Assembly (NCBI GenBank): GCA_030445745.1
Contig: JASUTE010000007.1
Location: forward strand, 1,839-65,838
From: Candidatus Cloacimonadota bacterium
GTDB lineage: Bacteria > Cloacimonadota > Cloacimonadia > Cloacimonadales > TCS61
Direction: 5' to 3'
DNA: 64,000 bases
The translations under genes and the position numbers were made by a program. Shown here one piece after another: positions 28,610 through 64,000 of this stretch (positions are counted from its first letter, which is position 1; each line of letters opens with the position of its first letter). The notes beneath the pieces were generated by a model. That model saw nothing but the letters and a program-made list of their open reading frames with translations. It made no database searches and had not been told where the DNA came from.

Positions 28610-29859
28610 TTACCTTGGAAAAAAATCAGAAATTTGCAACACCCAGCGGGGTGGTTGTGGAAATTTATTTGCAAAATATAGCCTTGGATTTGGCTGGCGG
28701 TAATGCTAATGAAACCAACTTAAATTTAAATTGGCAGGCAGAAGAAGATATGCAACTAGAGGATCTGCTTCAAGTAGAATATTTTGCAGACGAGAACCGT
28801 TTGAAGGTCGAAGAGAAACAGGCCAAAGTGAACAATGCTAAATTTACTGTACAACTACCGCCAGAATGCGAAGTGCTGGCAGATAACGAAAATGGCAGCA
28901 TTAGCGCTAATAATTTAGATGGGAATGTGAAACTAAAAACCGAAAATGGTTCTATAAGCTTGCAGAATAGTCAGGGGAAATTTAGGCTGAAGTCAGAAAA
29001 TGGCTTTTTACGGGCTAAAGCGATCTCGGGTGAATTGAAATTAAATAATGAGAATGGGGCCAGCAAAGTTGTGCAATGTTCAGGAAAACTTAAGGTAAAG
29101 AGTGAAAATGGGGTTATCCGTGTTTTAGAAGCCGGGTGCGACAAAGCGGAGATTACCAGTGAAAATGCACTTATTTATTTTGAGTTTGCCGAAATCGAGC
29201 AGGGTAAGTTTAAATTCAAAAACGAAAATGGGAAGATCCATCTGGCAGTTCCGTCCCAGCTTCCTTACAATATCGATGCTGCTACCAAAAGCGGAAAAAT
29301 GCACATTGGCCTGAAAGGTGAGTACGATGGTGAAAGTGATTCTACTTCCAAGATAATAGAGATGACCCAAGGCGCTGGGACAGTAGCAATTAAGGTACAA
29401 AATAAGCAAGGTTCGATTAACATAATGCCGGCCAATAAAGGTTTTGGGTATAGCCACCATTTCGATTTCGATTTTATTACCAATACACTCGATAATGTTC
29501 TCGACATTATTCCGCAAGAATATCGGAAAAAAGCACAACAAGATTTCAACAAAACAAAGGAGAAATTACAGAATATTGATTTAGGAAAAATTTCTGGTAA
29601 TGTGGAAACCGCTTTGAACGAAGTGAAAGATGAGCTAGATAAATTTGCTCAGAAGGTTTCTGAATCTAAATTTCAGGAAGACTTGAAGCAAAAAGTACGG
29701 CAAGGTGTGCAGAAAGTAAAAACAAACTTAAGTAGCAGTAGCCGAAAAGAGGTAGATGAGCGCAGTCGTCTAAAAATATTGCAACTTTTGGAAGATGGTA
29801 AAATAACTCCCGATGAAGCAGAACGGCTTTTGGCAGCTATAGGTAAAAATGATGAATGA
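28606..29859 (+). CDS. DUF4097 beta-strand-repeat protein (YvlB/LiaX-like) with a C-terminal SHOCT-like helix
   Basis: 417 aa. 4-nt overlap with the upstream gene. Repeated xENGxIxL/V strands (TENGSISLQN, SENGFLRAK, NENGASKVV, SENGVIRVL, NENGKIHLA). C-terminus RLKILQLLEDGKITPDEAERLLAAIG. Confidence 0.7.
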   Translation: MITLEKNQKFATPSGVVVEIYLQNIALDLAGGNANETNLNLNWQAEEDMQLEDLLQVEYFADENRLKVEEKQAKVNNAKFTVQLPPECEVLADNENGSISANNLDGNVKLKTENGSISLQNSQGKFRLKSENGFLRAKAISGELKLNNENGASKVVQCSGKLKVKSENGVIRVLEAGCDKAEITSENALIYFEFAEIEQGKFKFKNENGKIHLAVPSQLPYNIDAATKSGKMHIGLKGEYDGESDSTSKIIEMTQGAGTVAIKVQNKQGSINIMPANKGFGYSHHFDFDFITNTLDNVLDIIPQEYRKKAQQDFNKTKEKLQNIDLGKISGNVETALNEVKDELDKFAQKVSESKFQEDLKQKVRQGVQKVKTNLSSSSRKEVDERSRLKILQLLEDGKITPDEAERLLAAIGKNDE

Positions 29860-30220
29860 AAAAAGGCGAATTTTGCAGATGGTTGCTGCTGGGAAAATAA
29901 CCGCCAGAGAGGGTGAAAAATTACTAACTGCTTTGCAAAAAACTAAATCTGCCGAAAAGCTGTATATCCAAATTACTAGAGAAAATGCCAGCAAACCCAG
30001 CCTGAACTTAGCAATTCCTATGAAATATGTTCATTTAGGTTGGAAGCTATTACCCAGCAAGCTTACAGTGGTTTCCCAGCAGGCAGGCTACGATCTTTCC
30101 CAGCTAAATTGGCAGCAGATAAACAGTATGGCTTCGGCTGGCGAAAAAGGTGAGCTGTTCTATACTGAGATTACCGAGAAAGATGGCTCTACCAGCGAAG
30201 TTAGAGTGTTTATAGAATAA
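29849..30220 (+). CDS. SHOCT-like/LiaX-N-terminal-motif protein
   Basis: 123 aa. Overlaps the upstream gene by 11 nt. N-terminus KRRILQMVAAGKITAREGEKLLTALQ repeats the motif that ends the preceding protein. Confidence 0.6.
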   Translation: MMNEKRRILQMVAAGKITAREGEKLLTALQKTKSAEKLYIQITRENASKPSLNLAIPMKYVHLGWKLLPSKLTVVSQQAGYDLSQLNWQQINSMASAGEKGELFYTEITEKDGSTSEVRVFIE

Positions 30221-30255
30221 AAAAAAGACCGTCGCTTACATTAGCGGCGGTCTTT
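30216..30255. terminator. Terminator hairpin, copy 1 of a 40-bp exact direct repeat
   Basis: AATAAAAAAAAGACCGTCGCTTACATTAGCGGCGGTCTTT. Stem agaccgtcgct/agcggcggtct. The 8-nt A-run gives the strong U-tract on the minus strand. Confidence 0.75.
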
Positions 30256-30388
30256 GTACTATTTATTTTTTTGGATCATATACAAAAAGCTAAAATGTTG
30301 AGTATTATTTTTTTAAATAAAAAACATATATAAATTATTTGACACATTTTATTTATCGGAACATTTTACCCTTTAAAAGGAGGGATTT

Positions 30389-31381
30389 ATGCTATTTGGT
30401 AAAAGTAAAATTATTTTGTTTATTGTGATTTTATGTTTTACTACTGTTTTATTAGAAGCTGCTGAATTTGGGATAAAAATAGGTACAGGTTATTCCAATT
30501 TAGAAAATGGTACATATAAAATGGAATTTAATGGACTGCGGGAATCACAATATTATGAGGCGTTCTACGATTCAGCAGGTCAAGAAACGATTATCGACAC
30601 TGCTTTTATAAAAATGATGTTAACCACCACAACAGAAGCGGAAATTGAAAATAAAATGACTTTTTCAGGTGGTTTTTATGCACGTTTTAATTTACATAAA
30701 AATGTAAATAATAAAGAAAAATCTTATAATGGAATAAATCTACTACTGGAAACCAATTATCAACATCACAAGGTTACATTTAAGTTTGGTAATTCAATCA
30801 ATAACTCTATTGTTACTTCACCAGATGTAACTCAAACTATGATAAATTCTGGCCAAATAAGCAATACCGAGGCTACAAATATTATTTCAGGAGTTAACAG
30901 CAATCCGACTTCTGATTTGAGTTTGGATTATGTAGAAATACCATTAATGCTAGAATTGATGAAAAAGTATGAAAAAACAGAAAGTCCCTACCATAGTGCA
31001 TATATATATTTTGGTCCTGCTTTACGGGTTTGCTTAAATAGTGTGGAAGAAATTTCTAAAGATCTAAAAAGAATATTGCCTCTTTATGAAGAAGGGCTTA
31101 ATTTCAATTATGAAGCGAGTTCCGATACCGTAACTGTTATTGAGGATTATCGAAAAATAGAAACTAGTAGAACTGAAATAGCTGATAGCTTTAATGAAGT
31201 AACAAAGTCAATTACAGTAGGTTGCGGTATCCAACTTGATAAAATATTTAATTTAGATTTAGGCTCAGATACTTTTTCGTTTGATTTTAGAGCAAACATC
31301 GGATGGGGAAAGATTAATGATTTTTCTAGCAAAGATTTCACTTTAAATAGCTATAACTTTCTGTTAGGCTATAAATTCTAA
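30389..31381 (+). CDS. Outer-membrane beta-barrel protein (porin-like), function unknown
   Basis: 330 aa. Signal peptide (ILFIVILCFTTVLLEA). Alternating-hydrophobic strands. C-terminal ...FLLGYKF. AAGGAGG RBS. Confidence 0.55.
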   Translation: MLFGKSKIILFIVILCFTTVLLEAAEFGIKIGTGYSNLENGTYKMEFNGLRESQYYEAFYDSAGQETIIDTAFIKMMLTTTTEAEIENKMTFSGGFYARFNLHKNVNNKEKSYNGINLLLETNYQHHKVTFKFGNSINNSIVTSPDVTQTMINSGQISNTEATNIISGVNSNPTSDLSLDYVEIPLMLELMKKYEKTESPYHSAYIYFGPALRVCLNSVEEISKDLKRILPLYEEGLNFNYEASSDTVTVIEDYRKIETSRTEIADSFNEVTKSITVGCGIQLDKIFNLDLGSDTFSFDFRANIGWGKINDFSSKDFTLNSYNFLLGYKF

Positions 31382-31419
31382 TAAAAAAAAGACCGTCGCT
31401 TACATTAGCGGCGGTCTTT
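31380..31419. terminator. Terminator hairpin, copy 2 of the 40-bp exact direct repeat (serves galE on the minus strand)
   Basis: Identical 40 nt to 30216-30255. On the minus strand the hairpin is followed by TTTTTTTT, 22 nt after the galE stop. Confidence 0.8.
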
Positions 31420-31441
31420 ATGATATTTTTAAGAAAAGTTT

Positions 31442-32449
31442 TTAGTAACCTTCCGGATTATTTTTCTGCCAGCGCCAGGAGTCCTCGCACATTTTTAGTA
31501 GGTCATATTGTGCCTTCCAGCCCAAATCTTTAGCGGCTTTGGAAGCATCAGCGTAACATTCGCCGATATCACCGGGGCGTCTTGCGGTAATTTGGTAAGG
31601 AATTTTTTTGCCGCTAACCTGAGAAAAAGCAGCTATCACTTCCAATACGGAATATCCGCGCCCTGTCCCTAAATTATAGGTGACTATGCCGGGTTTTTCT
31701 TGTAATTTTTGCAAAGCTGCTAAATGTCCCCGAGCCAGATCGACCACGTGGATATAATCACGCACGCCGGTGCCATCAGCTGTTTGGTAATCGTTACCAA
31801 ACACATTCAATTTTTTACGTTTTCCCACAGCAACCTGAGAAATATATGGCATCAAATTATTGGGAATACCTTGCGGATCTTCACCCATAGTGCCAGAAGG
31901 ATGAGCTCCCACTGGGTTAAAATAGCGGAGCAGAGCTACATTCCAGCTACTATCGGCATTGTAAAGATCGCGCATAATTTGTTCGATCATTAATTTGCTG
32001 GTACCGTAGGGATTGGTAGTATGTAGTGGGAAATCCTCGGTGATGGGTACCGTTTCCGGCTCGCCATAAACTGTTGCCGAGCTGGAAAAAACTATATCTT
32101 TAATGTTATATTGTGTCATAACTTGCAGAAGAACCAGAGAGCCATTCACATTATTTTCATAGTAAGCCAAGGGTTTAGCTACCGATTCTCCTACAGCTTT
32201 CAATCCGGCAAAGTGAATAACAGCTTCTATGTGGTTTTCCTGGAATATCTTGTGCAGAGCTGCGCTATCACGAATATCTTCTTGGTAGAATTTAGGTTTA
32301 TTACCTGTTAGGTTGGAAATGCGGTTCAATACTTCTTGTTTACTGTTGGAAAGATTATCGATTATAACTACCCGGTGACCAGCTTGCATCAGTTCCACCA
32401 CAGTGTGGCTGCCGATATAGCCAGTACCACCTGTTACTAATATATTCAT
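31442..32449 (-). CDS. galE: UDP-glucose 4-epimerase
   Basis: 335 aa. [15 protein letters not shown]..., YGxxK ([10 protein letters not shown]), full-length GalE pattern. Confidence 0.95.
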
Positions 32450-32508
32450 ATAAGATTTATCCTTTCTTATGTTTAAATTTCAACTTACAGTTCTCGGCTA
32501 GTGGAATC
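32419..32508 (-). repeat. Direct repeat DR1-proximal (galE 5'UTR plus first 10 codons plus 1 nt)
   Basis: 90 nt identical to 32760-32849 by direct comparison. Confidence 0.9.
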
Positions 32509-32759
32509 TCGCTTTCAGCGGGAATTTGAAAATGAATTTATATAATTTTTAAGACGTTTTTTAGGGCATCTTTTTTTAAACAAACTTCGTAATAAACTAA
32601 TTTCAAAGGAACTCTATATTTTGTTGCTGTAACATCACGTTATTGTGTTGTTTTAACCGCTCTATTAAATCTTTAGTAAAACCGTAATAATATTTATTAT
32701 CTTTTTAGCTTATAAGCACTTAGGTATAATATTTCATTTTCAAATTATTCCACCTGGCA
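32509..32759 (-). mobile_element. Decayed GIY-YIG cassette (pseudogene) inserted upstream of galE
   Basis: Same junction TGCCAGGTGGAATAATTTGAAA-ATG as the intact copy. Reads MKYYT*VLIS*KDNKYYYGFTKDLIERLKQHNN..., then a frameshift and a ~30-nt deletion relative to 33933-34205. Confidence 0.75.
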
Positions 32760-32849
32760 AGCCAGTACCACCTGTTACTAATATATTCATATAAGATTTA
32801 TCCTTTCTTATGTTTAAATTTCAACTTACAGTTCTCGGCTAGTGGAATC
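32760..32849 (-). repeat. Direct repeat DR1-distal (copy of galE 5'UTR plus start plus 10 codons)
   Basis: 90/90 identity to 32419-32508. Continues into the cassette junction instead of into galE. Confidence 0.9.
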
Positions 32850-32909
32850 CCGATCTCCTCGGGTGAAGTAAACTAAGATTCAATCCTAAGCTACAGAACT
32901 GTTTTATTT

Positions 32910-33869
32910 CTATAACTCGGGTAAAAAGCCGTTTTCTGTTTGTAGTAGATTTAAATATTGGGAAACACCTTTTTCTAAAGAGGTGAATTCTGTTTTATAC
33001 CCGGCATTTCTCAGGTTATTCAGATCGGCTTTAGTAAAGGTTTGGTATGTATCTTCCAGATCTTGGGGGAAAGGGATAGGCGCGATGCTGCTTTCTGGAA
33101 ATTGGGATTGTACAAGTTCAGCCAGTTTTTGAAAACTGCGTGCTTCCCCACTCCCACAGTTAAAAATACCCGATTTTTCCAAATTTTCCAAGAAAAATAA
33201 ATTAACATCAACAGCATCCTCTACCCAGATAAAATCGCGCAGATAGTTGTCACTGCCTTCAAACACACTTATCTTTCCCTCTTTTGCAGCCTGATGATAG
33301 AAGTGATAAATCACCGAAGCCATGCGACCTTTATGGTTTTCTTGAGGACCATATACATTAAAATAGCGTAGCCCGACAACCTGAGATAGCTCTTTTTTGC
33401 TAAAATTATTAGTTAGACGGCGGACGTAGTTGTCGAAAGCAAATTTGGAAAAACCGTAGATGTTCAAGGGATATTCACTGGCGCGTTCTTCTTTGAAACC
33501 ATTTTTGCCATGGCCATAAGTGGCAGCACTGGAAGCATAGATGAAATTTATTTTGTTGTTAAGGGCAAACTTAAGTAATTTTTTGGAATAAGTGTAGTTG
33601 TTATCCATCATATATTTTCCATCTTGTTCAACCGTGGAAGAGCAGGCACCTTGATGAAAGATGATATCGTAATCGTTGAATTGCTCCAACTGTTGTAAAA
33701 AATCATTTTTGTTTATGTAATCTAGGAATTTTAATCTATTCAAATTTAAATGTTTGGCAGCATTACTAAGGTTATCTACAATTGTGATATGGTCAAAACC
33801 ACGTTTGTTGAGTCCATATACCAGGTTACTGCCGATGAAGCCAGCCCCTCCAGTTACTATTATTTTCAT
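32910..33869 (-). CDS. hldD: ADP-L-glycero-D-manno-heptose 6-epimerase
   Basis: MKIIVTGGAGFIGSNLVYGLNKRGFDHITIVDNLSNAAKHLNL... closely follows the RfaD/HldD N-terminus. Start preferred at the second ATG (33869); the track ORF begins at 33887. Confidence 0.88.
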   Translation of the reverse strand: MKIIVTGGAGFIGSNLVYGLNKRGFDHITIVDNLSNAAKHLNLNRLKFLDYINKNDFLQQLEQFNDYDIIFHQGACSSTVEQDGKYMMDNNYTYSKKLLKFALNNKINFIYASSAATYGHGKNGFKEERASEYPLNIYGFSKFAFDNYVRRLTNNFSKKELSQVVGLRYFNVYGPQENHKGRMASVIYHFYHQAAKEGKISVFEGSDNYLRDFIWVEDAVDVNLFFLENLEKSGIFNCGSGEARSFQKLAELVQSQFPESSIAPIPFPQDLEDTYQTFTKADLNNLRNAGYKTEFTSLEKGVSQYLNLLQTENGFLPEL

Positions 33870-33943
33870 AAGTTTAAATCCTTTCATTAAAAAAAATATA
33901 ACTTTATGTTCTCGGCCAGTGGAATCCCGCTTTCAGCGGGAAT
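33838..33943 (-). repeat. Direct repeat DR2-proximal (hairpin motif plus hldD 5'UTR plus first 10 codons)
   Basis: 106 nt matching 34227-34332 with one mismatch (33915 g vs 34304 a). Confidence 0.9.
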
Positions 33944-34205
33944 TTGAAAATGAATTTAAATAATTCTTAAGACGGTTTTTCAGAAACATTTTACCATGAT
34001 GGGTCTTAAAATACTTTTCTCTTTTTAGGGCATCTTTCTTATTAAAACAAACTTCGTAATAAACTAATTTCAATGGAGTTCTATATTTCGTTGCTGTAAT
34101 ATCACTGTTATTGTGTTGTTTTAACCGCTCTATTAAATCTTTAGTAAAACCGTAATAATATTTATTATCTTTTTCGCTTTTAAGTACATAGGTATAATAT
34201 TTCAT
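33933..34205 (-). CDS. GIY-YIG nuclease family protein (minimal URI domain, COG2827/YhbQ-like)
   Basis: 90 aa from the ATG at 34205: MKYYTYVLKSEKDNKYYYGFTKDLIERLKQHNN...LVYYEVCFNKKDALKREKYFK (GIY..YxG, R..xH, E motifs). The stop TGA lies in the loop of the hairpin that begins DR2. Confidence 0.85.
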   Translation of the reverse strand: MKYYTYVLKSEKDNKYYYGFTKDLIERLKQHNNSDITATKYRTPLKLVYYEVCFNKKDALKREKYFKTHHGKMFLKNRLKNYLNSFSNSR

Positions 34206-34226
34206 TTTCAAATTATTCCACCTGGC

Positions 34227-34332
34227 AAGCCAGCCCCTCCAGTTACTATTATTTTCATAAGTTTAAATCCTTTCATTAAAAAAAATATAACTTTATGTTC
34301 TCGACCAGTGGAATCCCGCTTTCAGCGGGAAT
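34227..34332 (-). repeat. Direct repeat DR2-distal (copy of hairpin plus hldD 5'UTR plus start plus 10 codons)
   Basis: 105/106 identity to 33838-33943. Runs into the junction TGCCAGGTGGAATAATTTGAAA. Confidence 0.9.
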
Positions 34333-34874
34333 ATTTTTCCTAAGCATGCTTTTCTTGGACTTTGCAGTAAATTAGCATTATCAGATTTCTGCAAAATTTT
34401 CTTAAAGTTTTTTTATAAGTTTTCTCCGCCCACTAAATTCTACCACAATGAAAAATTCCAGCAGTTTTCAGGTAGCCTAATATTTCTGAGCAGAGTTTTC
34501 TCTGTCTTCTGCTTGGAAACGGAAACGAGGATTTTGTGGCTTCTCTTAAGCTATATCCAGGTCAGGTAAATTTGCCAATCTCAGCTTTTTGATAGAGTCC
34601 ATTTTCAACATTTTTTCGGCAACATTCTATCGTTGCGCCTAAATGAATAACATCGAGATTTAGCTGGTCCGATTCTTTGCTTTAGCTGTTGGCGAAATAA
34701 ACGAGCAAATAACCAGATAACCCCAGCGTTTCAAAGAGGACAAAATCTATTGCAAAAATTTACTAGGGATATTACTCGGTTTAATAAATCGGGGATGATG
34801 ACGAGTTTTATTTCATAATTTTTTTGCAAAATAAAGCAATGTCAAAATTGCATATTCACAGTGAAGTGAAAGTT

Positions 34875-35699
34875 TCAAAAGAACTTCCTCATCTTTATAA
34901 TAAATTTTTCCAGTTCGTCTTTTTTGATCTCCATTCCTAGCGGAATATGAGGCTTATTAGCACCGTGAAAATCAGAACCACCAGTTATTATAAGGTCGTA
35001 CTTTGCTGCCAGATTTTTATATTCTGTAATTTGTTGAGTTTTATGTTGAGAATAATAAACTTCTATTCCTTGTAGTCCCTCGTAAGCCAGGTCGTGTACA
35101 AGACTTTCCAGTTCTTGTGCTTGCAAGCCGGTTTGACACGGATGCGCCAGAGCTGCAAAACCACCTGCAGCACGAATCAGTTGGATTGCTTCAGCCGGTT
35201 CCATTCGCTTTTTGTCTAAATAGAACGGCGCCCCTTTTTTTAGGTATTTATCAAATGCTTCTTGTTTGTTTTGTACATATCCTTTTTGTAATAGAAGTTG
35301 AGCAAAATGGGGACGTCCAACTAAATCGCTACCAGCTACTTTTACCAATTCATCCCAGCTGATTGCAAACCCGTGTTTTTGTAGGTTTCCCACCATTTTA
35401 TAATTACGTTTTTCTCTAAATTCCTGAAGTTGTGTGAGTTTTTTTTGTAAAGGTTGATAGTTGGAATCGACTCCATATCCCAGAATATGCAAGGTTTTAG
35501 GGTATTCAGCACTTATTTCCAGCCCGGGAATCAGCCGCAATTCATTGGGAATTTTCTCTATCTGGTTATAGGCGTCTAAGGTGTCGTGATCGGTTATAGA
35601 GAGTAGGGTAATTTGAGCATCAACAGCAGCCTGTAACAAACTAGAAGGGCTATAGGAACCGTCGGATGCGGTAGTATGAGTGTGTAGATCGATAAACAT
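34875..35699 (-). CDS. PHP-domain metal-dependent phosphoesterase (TrpH/YciV-like)
   Basis: Start preferred at 35699 (AAGGAAG-5 nt-ATG; MFIDLHTHTTASDGS...). ...ITDHDT..., ...GGSDFHG. Confidence 0.85.
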   Translation of the reverse strand: MFIDLHTHTTASDGSYSPSSLLQAAVDAQITLLSITDHDTLDAYNQIEKIPNELRLIPGLEISAEYPKTLHILGYGVDSNYQPLQKKLTQLQEFREKRNYKMVGNLQKHGFAISWDELVKVAGSDLVGRPHFAQLLLQKGYVQNKQEAFDKYLKKGAPFYLDKKRMEPAEAIQLIRAAGGFAALAHPCQTGLQAQELESLVHDLAYEGLQGIEVYYSQHKTQQITEYKNLAAKYDLIITGGSDFHGANKPHIPLGMEIKKDELEKFIIKMRKFF

Positions 35700-35745
35700 A
35701 ATACTTCCTTTAATGATGTGGCAAATAGGGTGTGGCGCCAAGCTC

Positions 35746-36090
35746 CTATTTTTGTGGATATTCCAAAATGTGGAGTTTGGTGGCGCGAATTCGTACCCGA
35801 GCTTTCTTGTTGAGATCTTTGTCTTCCCAACGGTCTTGTTTCAGGGTACCTTCCACTATTACAGGGGTTCCCTTCTTGCAATACTGTTGGTAACGGTCCA
35901 CCAAACCTCCCCAGAGTTCTACCTCGAAATAGGAGGTGAACTGCTGCCACTGACCTTTTTTGTCCTTGTAAGGATGATCATGTGCCAGATCAATTCTAAG
36001 GGTACGGGTATCGCCAACTTCACGTATGTCACTTTCCCTGACCACGTTCCCAGCTATTTGTACATTATTTATGTTTGGAATACGTGACAT
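35746..36090 (-). CDS. ssb: Single-stranded DNA-binding protein (OB fold only, no acidic C-terminal tip)
   Basis: 114 aa. NNVQIAGNVVRE...FEVELWGGLVD...KGTPVIVEGTLKQDRWEDKD matches the SSB OB-fold pattern. Ends ...LEYPQK with no Gly/Pro-rich linker and no DDxPF tail. Confidence 0.8.
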   Translation of the reverse strand: MSRIPNINNVQIAGNVVRESDIREVGDTRTLRIDLAHDHPYKDKKGQWQQFTSYFEVELWGGLVDRYQQYCKKGTPVIVEGTLKQDRWEDKDLNKKARVRIRATKLHILEYPQK

Positions 36091-36181
36091 GCTACTTTCC
36101 TTTCTGTGGCGCCATCACCTCTATTTGCCTTTTAAATACAGCTTCGCCGCCTCGCTTACAGCTTATTGGGCGAGCTTGGTT

Positions 36182-36210
36182 TATTTAGGAATAAAAGCGG
36201 CCAATGTCAA
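36182..36210 (-). promoter_or_regulatory. Sigma-70-type promoter for ssb (TTGACA-17 nt-TAAATA)
   Basis: Minus strand: TTGACAttggccgcttttattccTAAATA, about 90 nt upstream of the ssb ATG. Confidence 0.5.
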
Positions 36211-36398
36211 ACCTTTTTTTAGTGGCGCTAAAGCAACAAATAGCAGCCTTACTTTATCTTTTTGGTTTAGTATAAGTTAGAAAACCAAGTTAACAAATTG
36301 TGGCCTTGATGAAAATTTTTGTGGCGCAAAAGCAACACTCAGATTTTGCATTTGCTGCAAGGGCTGAATAGGTTAACTTATTTGGAAAGGGGGTAGTT

Positions 36399-36767
36399 AT
36401 GAAAGATTTGGTCGTTTGGTTTGAGATACCTGTAAATGATTTTATTCGAGCTAAGCAATTTTATGACAAACTGTTAGAAACGAATATTGAAGCCGAAAAG
36501 ATTGGCGGGGTTTTAATGGGATTTTTCCAACTTCCCAATTACAGCAATAGTGGTGCGATAGTACAAGGTCAGGGCTATGAACCTGGAGATAAAGGTCCAC
36601 TTTTATATTTTAATGCTGGCCAAGATCTACGTCCAATGCTGAAAAGAGCAGAAGCTGCTGGAGCTGAAATTCTACAGTCACGAACTTTTATAAGTGAAGC
36701 AATAGGCTATTATGCTATTTTTCGCGATCCTGAAGGAAACAGAATAGCTCTTCATTCTAAGGGTTAA
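36399..36767 (+). CDS. VOC (glyoxalase/bleomycin-resistance) family protein
   Basis: 122 aa. VWFEIPVNDFIRAKQFYDKLL ... FRDPEGNRIALHS, typical VOC beta-alpha-beta-beta-beta modules. Confidence 0.8.
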   Translation: MKDLVVWFEIPVNDFIRAKQFYDKLLETNIEAEKIGGVLMGFFQLPNYSNSGAIVQGQGYEPGDKGPLLYFNAGQDLRPMLKRAEAAGAEILQSRTFISEAIGYYAIFRDPEGNRIALHSKG

Positions 36768-37287
36768 GCAGCCAGCACCCGGGTTTACTGGCATGGTCTG
36801 ACACAAAACTGCTACTAGACAATTTTCTAATTTCTAATAATATAAAAAAATCTCCCAGCGCTGCAGTAGTCATTAAAATGGCATACACAAAAACTATTGG
36901 CCAACCCCAAGCAAAAGAGAGCAGCAATGGAATTATTCCCAACAATAAGCCGGGAATAATTACAGAAATTCTATAGGCATTTATCTTCATAGGTGTGGAA
37001 CAGTGAGCATACGGCGTTCCCGATTTTATACCTATATGCCAATCCTGGCGGCGTGTTTTTCCCAATAACCAAAACCCTAAAATATGCAATACTTCGTGCA
37101 GTAAACTTAATATCAAAATAGCTGGGATAAATATGTAAATACGTAACCATAAGTTGCTAAGAGCAGCAAATAGATTGTTCCAAAGTAACTGATAGACCAA
37201 GGTAGCACCAATTATTAGTAAAATTGTAACAGGAAGTGCTTTTATATAAATCTGTTTCAAGGTGAGAGAATAATCGATTTTCTTCAT
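36757..37287 (-). CDS. DUF3267-like membrane protein with HExxH motif (putative zincin)
   Basis: 176 aa. Multiple TM segments. LLHEVLHILGF. The 3' end overlaps the convergent VOC gene by 11 nt. Confidence 0.6.
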   Translation of the reverse strand: MKKIDYSLTLKQIYIKALPVTILLIIGATLVYQLLWNNLFAALSNLWLRIYIFIPAILILSLLHEVLHILGFWLLGKTRRQDWHIGIKSGTPYAHCSTPMKINAYRISVIIPGLLLGIIPLLLSFAWGWPIVFVYAILMTTAALGDFFILLEIRKLSSSSFVSDHASKPGCWLLNP

Positions 37288-63238: not shown

Positions 63239-64000
63239 TTATTCAGGTTTATCTTCTTTTTGGGGTTCTTTTGTATCTTCTTCTTGAGATTCTTCAGTAA
63301 TTTCAGATTCTTTTTCATCTACTTTTTTTGAAGAAGCTTCTTGTTTAGGTTCTGCTTTTTTAGGTTTTGCCGCACTTTTCTTTTTTGGTTTTTCTGTTTC
63401 TTCTCTTTGTTTTTCTTCTTCGTTATTATCTTCTGGTTCATCTGCTTGTTCTTCCTGTTCGGTTTCAGGTGTGAGTTCTCCTAAATCTTCACTACCTTCG
63501 GAGGCTGCTTGTTTGCCTTCCAAAACAGCATCAGCCATAATACCAGAAATAAGGTGAATAGCGCGAATAGCATCATCGTTGGAAGGAATAACATAATCAA
63601 CCAAATCGGGATCGCAGTTGGTGTCTACCATAGCAATGATTGGAATACCTAATTTACGAGCTTCGTGTACAGCTATTTTCTCTTTTAAGATATCTACTAT
63701 GAAAATAGCATCTGGCAAAGTTTCCATTCCGCGAATACCACCTAAGTTGTTCAAAATCTTGTCATAGTTTTTTTTCATGCGGGTGGCTTCCAACTTGGTG
63801 AAACTGTTGATAGTGCCATCTTCCACAATTTGTTCATAGTAGTCTAGCTTGGCAATACTGTTACGGATGGTTTTCATATTAGTTAACGTACCACCAGCCC
63901 AGCGGTTGCTTACATAGAAAGCACCGCATTTTTCAGCAGCTTTTTCTATAGCTTCTTTGGCTTGTTTTTTGGTGCCCACGAAAAGCACCTTTCCACCTTT
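63239..64000 (-). CDS. rpsB: 30S ribosomal protein S2, N-terminus beyond the right window edge; carries a ~90-aa Glu/Lys-rich C-terminal extension
   Basis: The frame is open to position 64000 (...[15 protein letters not shown]...). The conserved S2 core ends near ...AVLEGKQ, followed by the acidic/basic tail [18 protein letters not shown]...KEDKPE. Confidence 0.95.

Follow-up and report, generated by a model that had tools for sequence, protein, structure and literature searches.

A hairpin-plus-tail repeat at hldD and galE of a Cloacimonadota bacterium, probably the 3' end of a small mobile unit with a GIY-YIG nuclease gene

A stretch of 64,000 nucleotides from a Candidatus Cloacimonadota bacterium (assembly GCA_030445745.1, contig JASUTE010000007.1, positions 1,839 to 65,838), called the window below, carries an hldD-like and a galE-like epimerase gene, each with a short insert near its start. 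The insert at hldD holds an intact gene for a 90-residue GIY-YIG nuclease, the one at galE a decayed copy of it, and both end in a small hairpin followed by an 18-nt tail. The window was analysed together with the whole assembly (2.04 Mb, 37% GC), and the locus is read on the minus strand throughout. In this orientation the hldD part runs hairpin (H) - tail - 68 nt - left repeat - nuclease open reading frame (ORF) - H - tail - 68 nt - hldD, and the galE part runs H' - tail - 70 nt - left repeat - pseudogene - H - tail - 70 nt - galE, where H' is a hairpin of different sequence. The repeated 68 nt (hldD) or 70 nt (galE) are the leader and first 10 codons of the host gene; because they recur downstream of each insert, hldD and galE both stay intact (Table 1). 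We consider it likely that the hairpin-plus-tail is the 3' end of a mobile unit of ~330 nt, whose sole gene encodes the 90-residue nuclease, of the Ssn type discussed at the end.

The direct repeat at hldD is 106 nt long with 1 mismatch, that at galE 89 nt with none. The first opens with hairpin and tail, as a first-pass annotation of this DNA had noted. The second opens at the tail, with the hairpin outside, and for this reason the two galE hairpins differ; the same annotation had placed only the 18-nt tail within the galE duplication, in agreement with the 100% identity that holds from the tail onward. Its coordinates for the four motif copies and its hairpin sequences, including a G-to-A change in the copy at 32490, proved accurate. 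Each insert has one copy at its right end (copies 2 and 4), and the other two (copies 1 and 3) stand at the head of the flanking direct repeats, so that the four amount to two pairs of local direct repeats, or at most two to three independent sequences. The tail, ATTCCACTRGYCGAGAAC, has four matches in the window versus 0.06 expected from shuffles, and no further copy with up to 2 mismatches exists in the whole assembly. The genome-wide copy count that had been proposed as a check thus comes to four, all around the two GIY-YIG inserts. A dispersed, generic REP is one of the roles first envisaged for the motif, and it does not suit a repeat with only four copies in the genome, though related ORF-less modules occur there in 11 and 25 copies.

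Table 1. Features of the hldD-galE locus (window coordinates)
Feature	Position	Strand	Remarks
Hairpin H, copy 1 (CCCGC-TGAAA-GCGGG; CCCGCTGAAAGCGGG)	34315-34329	minus	upstream of truncated hldD 5' copy; no adjoining nuclease gene
Tail, copy 1 (ATTCCACTGGTCGAGAAC), "solo" right-end repeat	34297-34314	minus	
Upstream copy of hldD leader and first 10 codons (68 nt)	34229-34296	minus	
Left terminal inverted repeat, hldD insert (TTGCCAGGTGGAAT-AATTTGAAAATGAA)	34201-34228	minus	directly after GGC codon of GxxG; includes nuclease ATG (34205)
Intact gene for 90-residue single-domain GIY-YIG nuclease (Ssn-like)	33933-34205	minus	PF01541
Inner right inverted repeat (TTCATTTTCAAATT)	33941-33954	minus	pairs with 34201-34214
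Hairpin H, copy 2 (CCCGCTGAAAGCGGG), 15-nt palindrome between inner and outer right repeat	33926-33940	minus	
Tail, copy 2, outer right terminal inverted repeat, hldD insert	33908-33925	minus	
hldD-like NAD-dependent epimerase gene	32910-33887	minus	intact via downstream repeat copy 33838-33943
Hairpin H' (CCCGA-GGAGA-TCGGG; CCCGAGGAGATCGGG)	32849-32863	minus	outside galE duplication; M1-type-like, with 5' flank CTTCA
Tail, copy 3 (solo)	32831-32848	minus	start of 89-nt galE repeat 32760-32848; also in empty-site allele L239
Left terminal inverted repeat, galE insert	32733-32760	minus	after GGC codon of GxxG
Decayed nuclease pseudogene	32523-32737	minus	frameshifts and 46-nt deletion; ~93% identical to hldD copy
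Hairpin H, copy 4 (one G-to-A change; CCCGCTGAAAGCGAG), and tail, copy 4, right end of galE insert	32490-32522	minus	hairpin 32508-32522, tail 32490-32507
galE-like UDP-glucose 4-epimerase gene	31442-32449	minus	intact via downstream repeat copy 32419-32507

In each insert the start, TTGCCAGGTGGAAT-AATTTGAAAATGAA, and the end, TTCATTTTCAAATT-H-ATTCCAC-TGGC, are reverse complements, the pairing being made of an inner inverted repeat (14/14) and an outer one of 11-12 nt. On single-stranded DNA (ssDNA) the left end, TTGCCAGGTGGAATAATTTGAAAATGAA, and the right end are predicted to form a stem of ~26 bp from which the hairpin projects as a side arm. Folded whole as ssDNA, the 328-nt unit reaches -41 kcal/mol, against -23 +/- 3.2 for shuffled sequences (z = -5.7), and the terminal stem with H as a side hairpin is present in both the minimum-energy and the centroid structures.

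A DNA search for relatives of the nuclease in 203 genomes of the same order found genes of 68-71% identity in two genomes, G167 and G189, which belong to two other genera of the same family. The 3' ends of these genes, ...CAATTCTT-ATTCCACTGGTCGAGAAG and ...ATTCCACAGGTCGAGAG (G167 and G189), are hairpin-free, and the right end of the present unit, once the 15-nt H is taken out, gives a gapless alignment with both. The right repeats of more distant relatives, TTATTTCACTGGGTAAAG and TTATCTAACGGGGTAAAC, can be aligned with it too, and so can the left ends with one another; TTGCCAGGTGGAATA at the left and ATTCCACTGGC(CGAG)AA at the right align with a family of ends related to TTCACCCCGTNAGATA. In another genus, with an unrelated leader adjoining, a nuclease gene of 71% identity closes with a sequence that equals the tail at 17 of 18 positions. 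An order-wide pattern search allowing 1 mismatch gave genuine matches in G167 and G189 only, the 5 others lying in coding DNA at the control rate. The nuclease ORF of G167 continues through the tail, to end ...SYSTGREDDN at its stop codon, and in silico removal of H from the present gene restores the ending ...NYSTGRE without a stop, the frame continuing through the leader into hldD. Judged from its sequence, the tail is therefore both the right terminal inverted repeat and the ancestral C-terminal codons (YSTGRE) of the nuclease. Without the 15-nt hairpin (window 33908-33955, minus strand), a nuclease-epimerase fusion would result. The palindrome occurs in this genome alone, with no hairpin at the G167 and G189 right ends, and the nuclease stop codon, a TGA, sits in the loop of H, where the first-pass annotation had seen it. 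H therefore appears to be a lineage-specific insertion in the right repeat and the current supplier of that stop codon.

It could be argued that the motif has no role of its own and is ordinary upstream DNA caught in two tandem duplications. Occurrences of the exact motif are indeed confined to the interior or margin of the two duplicated blocks, and a metagenome-wide exact scan for ATTCCACTNGNCGAGAAC gave at least 120 loci, of which the matches listed are chance occurrences in coding DNA (IPLxEN-type) and hairpin-free. Yet two different genes of this genome are preceded by the tail (17-18 of 18 nt), the left end of the unit is complementary to it, and a near-identical counterpart of the tail ends the 71%-identical nuclease gene elsewhere. 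That the motif is simply part of the duplication, an outcome foreseen at the first pass, is contradicted by the G167 and G189 loci, and we regard it as very improbable.

Folded as ssDNA, the four hairpins have energies of -7.6, -7.6, -5.2 and -3.0 kcal/mol, and modest z values (-3.0 to -0.6). The base-pair-preserving change in H' had been taken to argue that the structure itself is under selection. The change is real, yet it affects one pair in one sequence and is a single event; 120 of 500 shuffles score equally well in a pair-count test of compensatory change. Four sequences are too few for covariation statistics, and the argument for selection on the structure is not sustained. With its 5' flank, H' reads CTTCA-CCCGA-GGAGA-TCGGG-ATT, and the pattern TCACCCGA-N4-5-TCGGG has 6 instances in the genome, namely H' and 5 inner hairpins of a repeated module, M1. 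Since the CTTCA-flanked hairpin matches the inner hairpin of M1, H' would more economically be read as a different member of a population of hairpin modules than as a compensated descendant of H. The closing pair varies between C-G and A-T across these modules, which fits a hairpin-dependent function, though it is no test of one.

Such ORF-less modules are present in the genome. In M3 (11 copies) the arms CTTGCCCTATGGAAT and ATTCCACTAGGGCAGAGC enclose a pair of small GC hairpins, with the same design of a small hairpin followed by ATTCCACT. M1 (25 copies) has the sequence GATTGCTTCACCC(GA)TAAA(TC)GGGTTCGCAATGACGG; its reverse complement, CCGTCATTGCGAACCC..GGGTGAAGCAATCTG, starts with CGTCATT and ends with AATCTG, and so bears the flanks CGTCATT and AATCYR of the Neisseria NTS repeat. 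M1, M3 and a further hairpin module, TGTCATTTCGAC..., are gathered in mosaic clusters that break the assembly and lie mostly at contig ends, for example C33:82700-83000 and C17:36600-37300; in the window such modules lie near 63400-64000, and C32:67253-67366 is just past the window end. In G188 and G189 the same modules are present upstream of the capI-like gene. Two weak, sub-threshold Rfam matches, both to the sRNA model STnc240 (32-36 bits versus a gathering threshold of 55), at 30217-30293 and 31381-31453, flank an outer-membrane beta-barrel gene and are probably a duplicated terminator hairpin downstream of galE.

The target of the insertions is conserved. All four (hldD, galE and a capI-like epimerase gene in G167 and G189) lie directly after the second glycine codon of the Rossmann motif GxxG^(F/Y)IG, the caret marking the insertion point; the junction is GGC^TT(C/A)ATCGG in hldD and galE, the GGC boundary being written GGC^TTCATCGG, and GGG^TT(T/C)ATCGG in the capI-like gene. 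At each site a short ORF begins at the host start codon and extends into the left repeat. This decoy ORF has 16 codons at hldD (34208-34258, start codon 34258) and stops 2 nt before the nuclease ATG; that of galE spans 32740-32790, that of G167 overlaps the nuclease ATG and that of G189 stops 1 nt before it. Such a design suggests translational coupling to the nuclease. Uninterrupted orthologues with native sequence are available from G164, G169, G166, G165 and G170 and, for galE, from G001. The distance from the end of the tail to the insertion site is 68, 70, 68, 71-72 and 72 nt (hldD, galE, G167, G189 and G015, respectively), the last of these genomes having a degenerate solo tail only, upstream of an intact gene.

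This near-constant distance to start codon and GxxG site, kept despite leaders without significant similarity, could mean that the tail, with or without its hairpin, is a host cis-regulatory leader of sugar-nucleotide or lipopolysaccharide genes (a promoter module or an anti-termination recruitment site) beside which the cassettes landed. The presence of a tail upstream of intact, nuclease-free genes in G015 and in the empty-site allele L239 is in keeping with it. A conserved 5' leader of sugar-nucleotide genes had also been among the roles first suggested, but no motif lies upstream of the uninterrupted galE of G001, from the same genus, and the tail is missing upstream of the capI-like orthologues in G164, G169, G166 and G165, as it is from the orthologues of genus g18. 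Moreover, the tail is nuclease coding sequence in G167 and G189, is complementary to the left end of the element and is homologous to the inverted repeats of relatives lodged in unrelated genes. No Rfam match falls on the motif (permissive thresholds, 30000-37000), there is no ops element nearby, and sigma-70 promoter and terminator signals are not above shuffles on the coding strand. A role as host leader is, in our judgement, improbable, and the suggestion was not borne out.

The mobile DNA might also be larger than the unit delimited here, extending from the left repeat through nuclease, tail and leader to the ATG and 10 codons, so that insertion at GxxG^FIG would exchange the start of the gene, and the upstream tails would be remnants of tandem copies produced by re-insertion or unequal crossing-over. 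Integrative elements equipped with a spare gene end would be an analogy. The G167 locus lends itself to this interpretation: the upstream decoy there is the native 5' end, as found in the uninterrupted orthologues, and the functional start, MHILITGCSGF, differs from it and has an unrelated leader. So does G189, which has a tandem consisting of a 5'-truncated nuclease copy, a tail and a decoy, then a full copy, a tail and the gene. The length from tail to site is constant, and the target junction is rebuilt after insertion, so that re-insertion would be possible. At galE, however, the leader-proximal sequence and N-terminal codons are nearer to those of the native G001 galE (27/30 nt) than to the hldD version, and the two galE copies are identical. 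Between the four loci the leaders show no significant similarity, the flanks of the solo copies are without nuclease remnants, and the solo tail of galE has a different hairpin. We think it unlikely that the gene start travels with the unit, while noting that the similarity between leaders (p about 0.04-0.06 at best) is so weak that it does not itself decide between local duplication and a portable module.

Metagenome contigs with the locus, 99.7-99.9% identical, number at least 17. On a 32-kb contig (L239/L246) a single H'-tail-leader-galE is found with no insert; assembly collapse is unlikely there, because the same contig resolves the hldD insert with its identical repeats. L250 (JGI 3300043117, Ga0484788_002579, 2070-2540) has no hldD; the repeat of the hldD side, with its left end, leads straight into the galE pseudogene, in the haplotype seen most often, as would be expected if the two inserts, 1467 nt apart, had recombined. 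The pseudogene has 4 haplotypes in the population, with 5 variable sites in 265 nt, and its flanking repeats never differ, as if they had undergone gene conversion with each other or the event were recent. These natural filled and empty alleles show that the element is still dynamic.

The nuclease matches PF01541 over residues 2-72 (E 2.5e-16) and has no second domain. The protein is identical in 37 of 37 blocks of public assemblies, always in the same context. Relatives of the protein, with 37-68% identity, turned up at 62 loci, spread over Bacteroidota, Patescibacteria, Ignavibacteria, Proteobacteria and other phyla. Of the 47 loci examined, 35 have the ORF enclosed by a perfect inverted repeat of 10-16 nt, most commonly ACCCCGT[GT]AGATA / TATCT[CA]ACGGGGT, and the tail of the present unit grades into this repeat. 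The present unit has the properties of such mini-elements, namely a length of ~275-330 nt, a single GIY-YIG ORF and terminal inverted repeats like TTCACCCCGTNAGATA. Many relatives split conserved genes, and do so at a position shared between genomes: AlbA_2-type ATPases at REAxI^NAxxH, integrases at GYDI^..TVQELLGH and four-helix-bundle "23S IVS" proteins. Long duplications recur among them as well. A minority of distant relatives (L062, L067, L023 and L060) are flanked by long direct repeats, of 33 nt over a tRNA 3' end, 49, 104 and 121 nt. No description of GIY-YIG mini-elements bounded by inverted repeats as transposons was found in the literature.

The genome itself has further paralogues. 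Two, at C9:4483-4695 and C9:9714-9917 (L075 and L077; 57% and 30% identical), each interrupt a gene for a four-helix-bundle "23S rRNA IVS protein", the first having the ends TGCCCCGTGGAAT / ATTTCACAGGGCA; relatives in G014 and G197 occupy the same position in the same gene family. Another, at C16:11347-12035 (L078 1034-1722), follows the tmRNA gene (tag ANDNLALAA) at a distance of 115 nt and has a second, degenerate copy after it.

Beyond the anatomy of the unit, the homology of its ends, the conserved target site and the population alleles with and without the galE insert, all of which are directly observed, a mechanism can be proposed. The paired ends would form a stem that the nuclease recognises on ssDNA and cuts alongside, as SsnA does with NTS hairpins; it is by analogy with that enzyme that we infer cleavage of the stem. 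A cut at the stem or at the target would then start recombination-dependent copying into GGC^TT, and a second junction would be made at a resident tail upstream of the gene, through homology or a nick by the nuclease, so that the stretch from resident tail to target would become duplicated. The upstream copy would turn into the 16-codon decoy ORF, and the downstream copy would keep the essential gene whole. That the direct repeats originate in this manner, with the resident tail as second junction, is a guess. Were it right, it would follow that both duplications begin with the motif, that galE shares the tail only, and that only such events survive in essential genes. Possibly, then, the nuclease and its paired ends constitute an autonomous mobile element of a new mechanistic kind, driven by a hydrolytic ssDNA nuclease in place of a transposase or recombinase, which homes to the GxxG^(F/Y)IG boundary of Rossmann-fold epimerase genes and survives there via a fixed-length (~70-90 nt) duplication anchored on a resident right end, rebuilding the gene start and donating the old start as a translational decoy; we put this forward as a tentative model.

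Several points weigh against our reading of the locus, or against parts of it. The proposed mechanism leaves unexplained the source of the first resident (solo) tails, and also the constant spacing of ~70 nt. GIY-YIG enzymes hydrolyse DNA, and no strand transfer by them is known. The solo tail of galE has a different hairpin, and the upstream flanks of the two solo copies have no significant similarity to the nuclease gene. The empty galE allele could be ancestral or could result from secondary precise loss via the 89-nt repeats. As to the enzyme, the nearest solved structures are of the UPF0213/YazA type, through weak PDB matches (E 6e-5 and 1.4e-3), and a tblastn search of plasmids gave Firmicute YazA-like matches only (37-41% identity), with no bridge to proteobacterial SsnA; an assignment to the Ssn clade (cd10448) would therefore be tentative. 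As to the repeats, the published SRM pattern, HGTCWYN(0-2)YYVSBRHN(0-5)WNVSBRGN(0-2)RNCYNB, has no match at 0-2 mismatches; at 3 mismatches three motif copies match, together with 5 unrelated sites in the same 2 kb, which is background level. The NTS consensus has no match at the motif either.

The locus is of interest for several reasons. An intact enzyme is found here with its presumed substrate, two pairing ends plus a side hairpin. Across three genera and three kinds of epimerase gene (hldD, galE and capI-like) the four insertion sites have one target in common, and natural filled, empty and recombinant alleles exist in public metagenomes. The locus illustrates how a selfish unit may live inside essential genes without killing them, and it explains oddities of annotation such as short "truncated epimerase" ORFs and direct repeats that hold a promoter-proximal leader.

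Among known signals and systems, two can be set aside at once. The coding-strand hairpin is followed by ATTCCACT and does not form an intrinsic terminator; the terminator scan gave none on the minus strand, its lone match being on the plus strand at copy 1, where no plus-strand gene ends. Nor is the motif a JUMPstart/ops leader, since no GGCGGTAG core lies within the region, the nearest being at 28855 and 37469.

Gene-restoring integrative elements, such as islands in tRNA genes or the lambdoid phage 21 and e14 at icd, employ tyrosine or serine recombinases and restore the 3' end of their target. As in those elements, direct repeats of part of the target gene flank the insert here, the gene is left intact, and precise loss by recombination is possible. 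No recombinase is present, however; the repeated part is the 5' end, with leader and start codon, and the displaced copy forms a decoy ORF abutting the nuclease start. Free-standing GIY-YIG homing endonucleases, the products of the Seg and Mob genes of T4-like phages, are active in intron-less homing; they have separate DNA-binding domains and cleave double-stranded DNA (dsDNA), and are not known to have terminal inverted repeats or hairpin modules. The present unit shares with them a GIY-YIG gene tied to a highly conserved target in a conserved gene, spread among paralogous or orthologous targets and a functional host gene. It differs from them in encoding a bare 90-residue catalytic domain, and Seg and Mob genes are not known to duplicate the 5' end of a gene.

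The first-pass annotation had compared the motif with REP/RAYT or IS200-type subterminal hairpins, as a recognition or processing structure of the element. The notion of an element end stands, insofar as the tail is the right terminal inverted repeat and the hairpin a subterminal palindrome of the kind associated with Ssn. The resemblance to REP/RAYT and IS200/IS605 extends to small hairpin repeats, here presumably likewise recognised as ssDNA by a small cognate nuclease, to ORF-less copies and to mosaic module clusters in the genome. Membership does not follow, since the enzyme belongs to the hydrolytic GIY-YIG nucleases, where those systems have a Y1 HUH transposase, and the repeat has only four copies against their tens to hundreds of extragenic ones; the ends are mutually pairing inverted repeats, and the long target duplications are foreign to the peel-and-paste transposition of IS200/IS605.

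The Ssn nucleases, described in 2025, are single-domain GIY-YIG proteins of ~94 residues (cd10448) that cut ssDNA beside hairpin repeats, an example being SsnA/NMB0047 of Neisseria meningitidis with its NTS/SRM repeats (Chenal et al., Nat Commun 2025, PMC11893778). They are site-specific on ssDNA and inactive on dsDNA or RNA, and cleavage also works when the two halves of the stem are on separate strands; 71% of the homologues have at least one repeat by the gene and 42% have repeats on both sides (PMC11893778). The authors remarked that repeat-gene-repeat resembles an insertion sequence, mobility being hypothesised only in their discussion (PMC11893778). The protein studied here, with its 90 residues and single GIY-YIG domain, agrees with this description in size and domain content, and at both loci the nuclease gene stands between copies of a hairpin-forming repeat; at hldD the upstream hairpin and tail end 92 nt before the nuclease start (34297 versus the ATG at 34205), and the downstream ones overlap its 3' end. 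H with its flanks, AAATTCCCGC-TGAAA-GCGGGATTCC, is similar to the Neisseria NTS/dRS3 core ATTCCCGCG-MAV-GCGGGAATC, the hairpin core being ATTCCCGC-loop-GCGGGA.TC, and the 25-copy module of this genome has the NTS flanks CGTCATT and AATCYR. There are differences: the ends here pair across the gene as terminal inverted repeats, whereas each Ssn repeat is a complete hairpin, and the copies number 4, not hundreds. The unit also lies within coding DNA, at a codon-boundary site, with direct repeats of 89-106 nt and filled and empty alleles, none of which figures in that paper. Taken as a whole, the Ssn system appears to be the closest known parallel, and what is said above of the function of the nuclease is drawn from SsnA.

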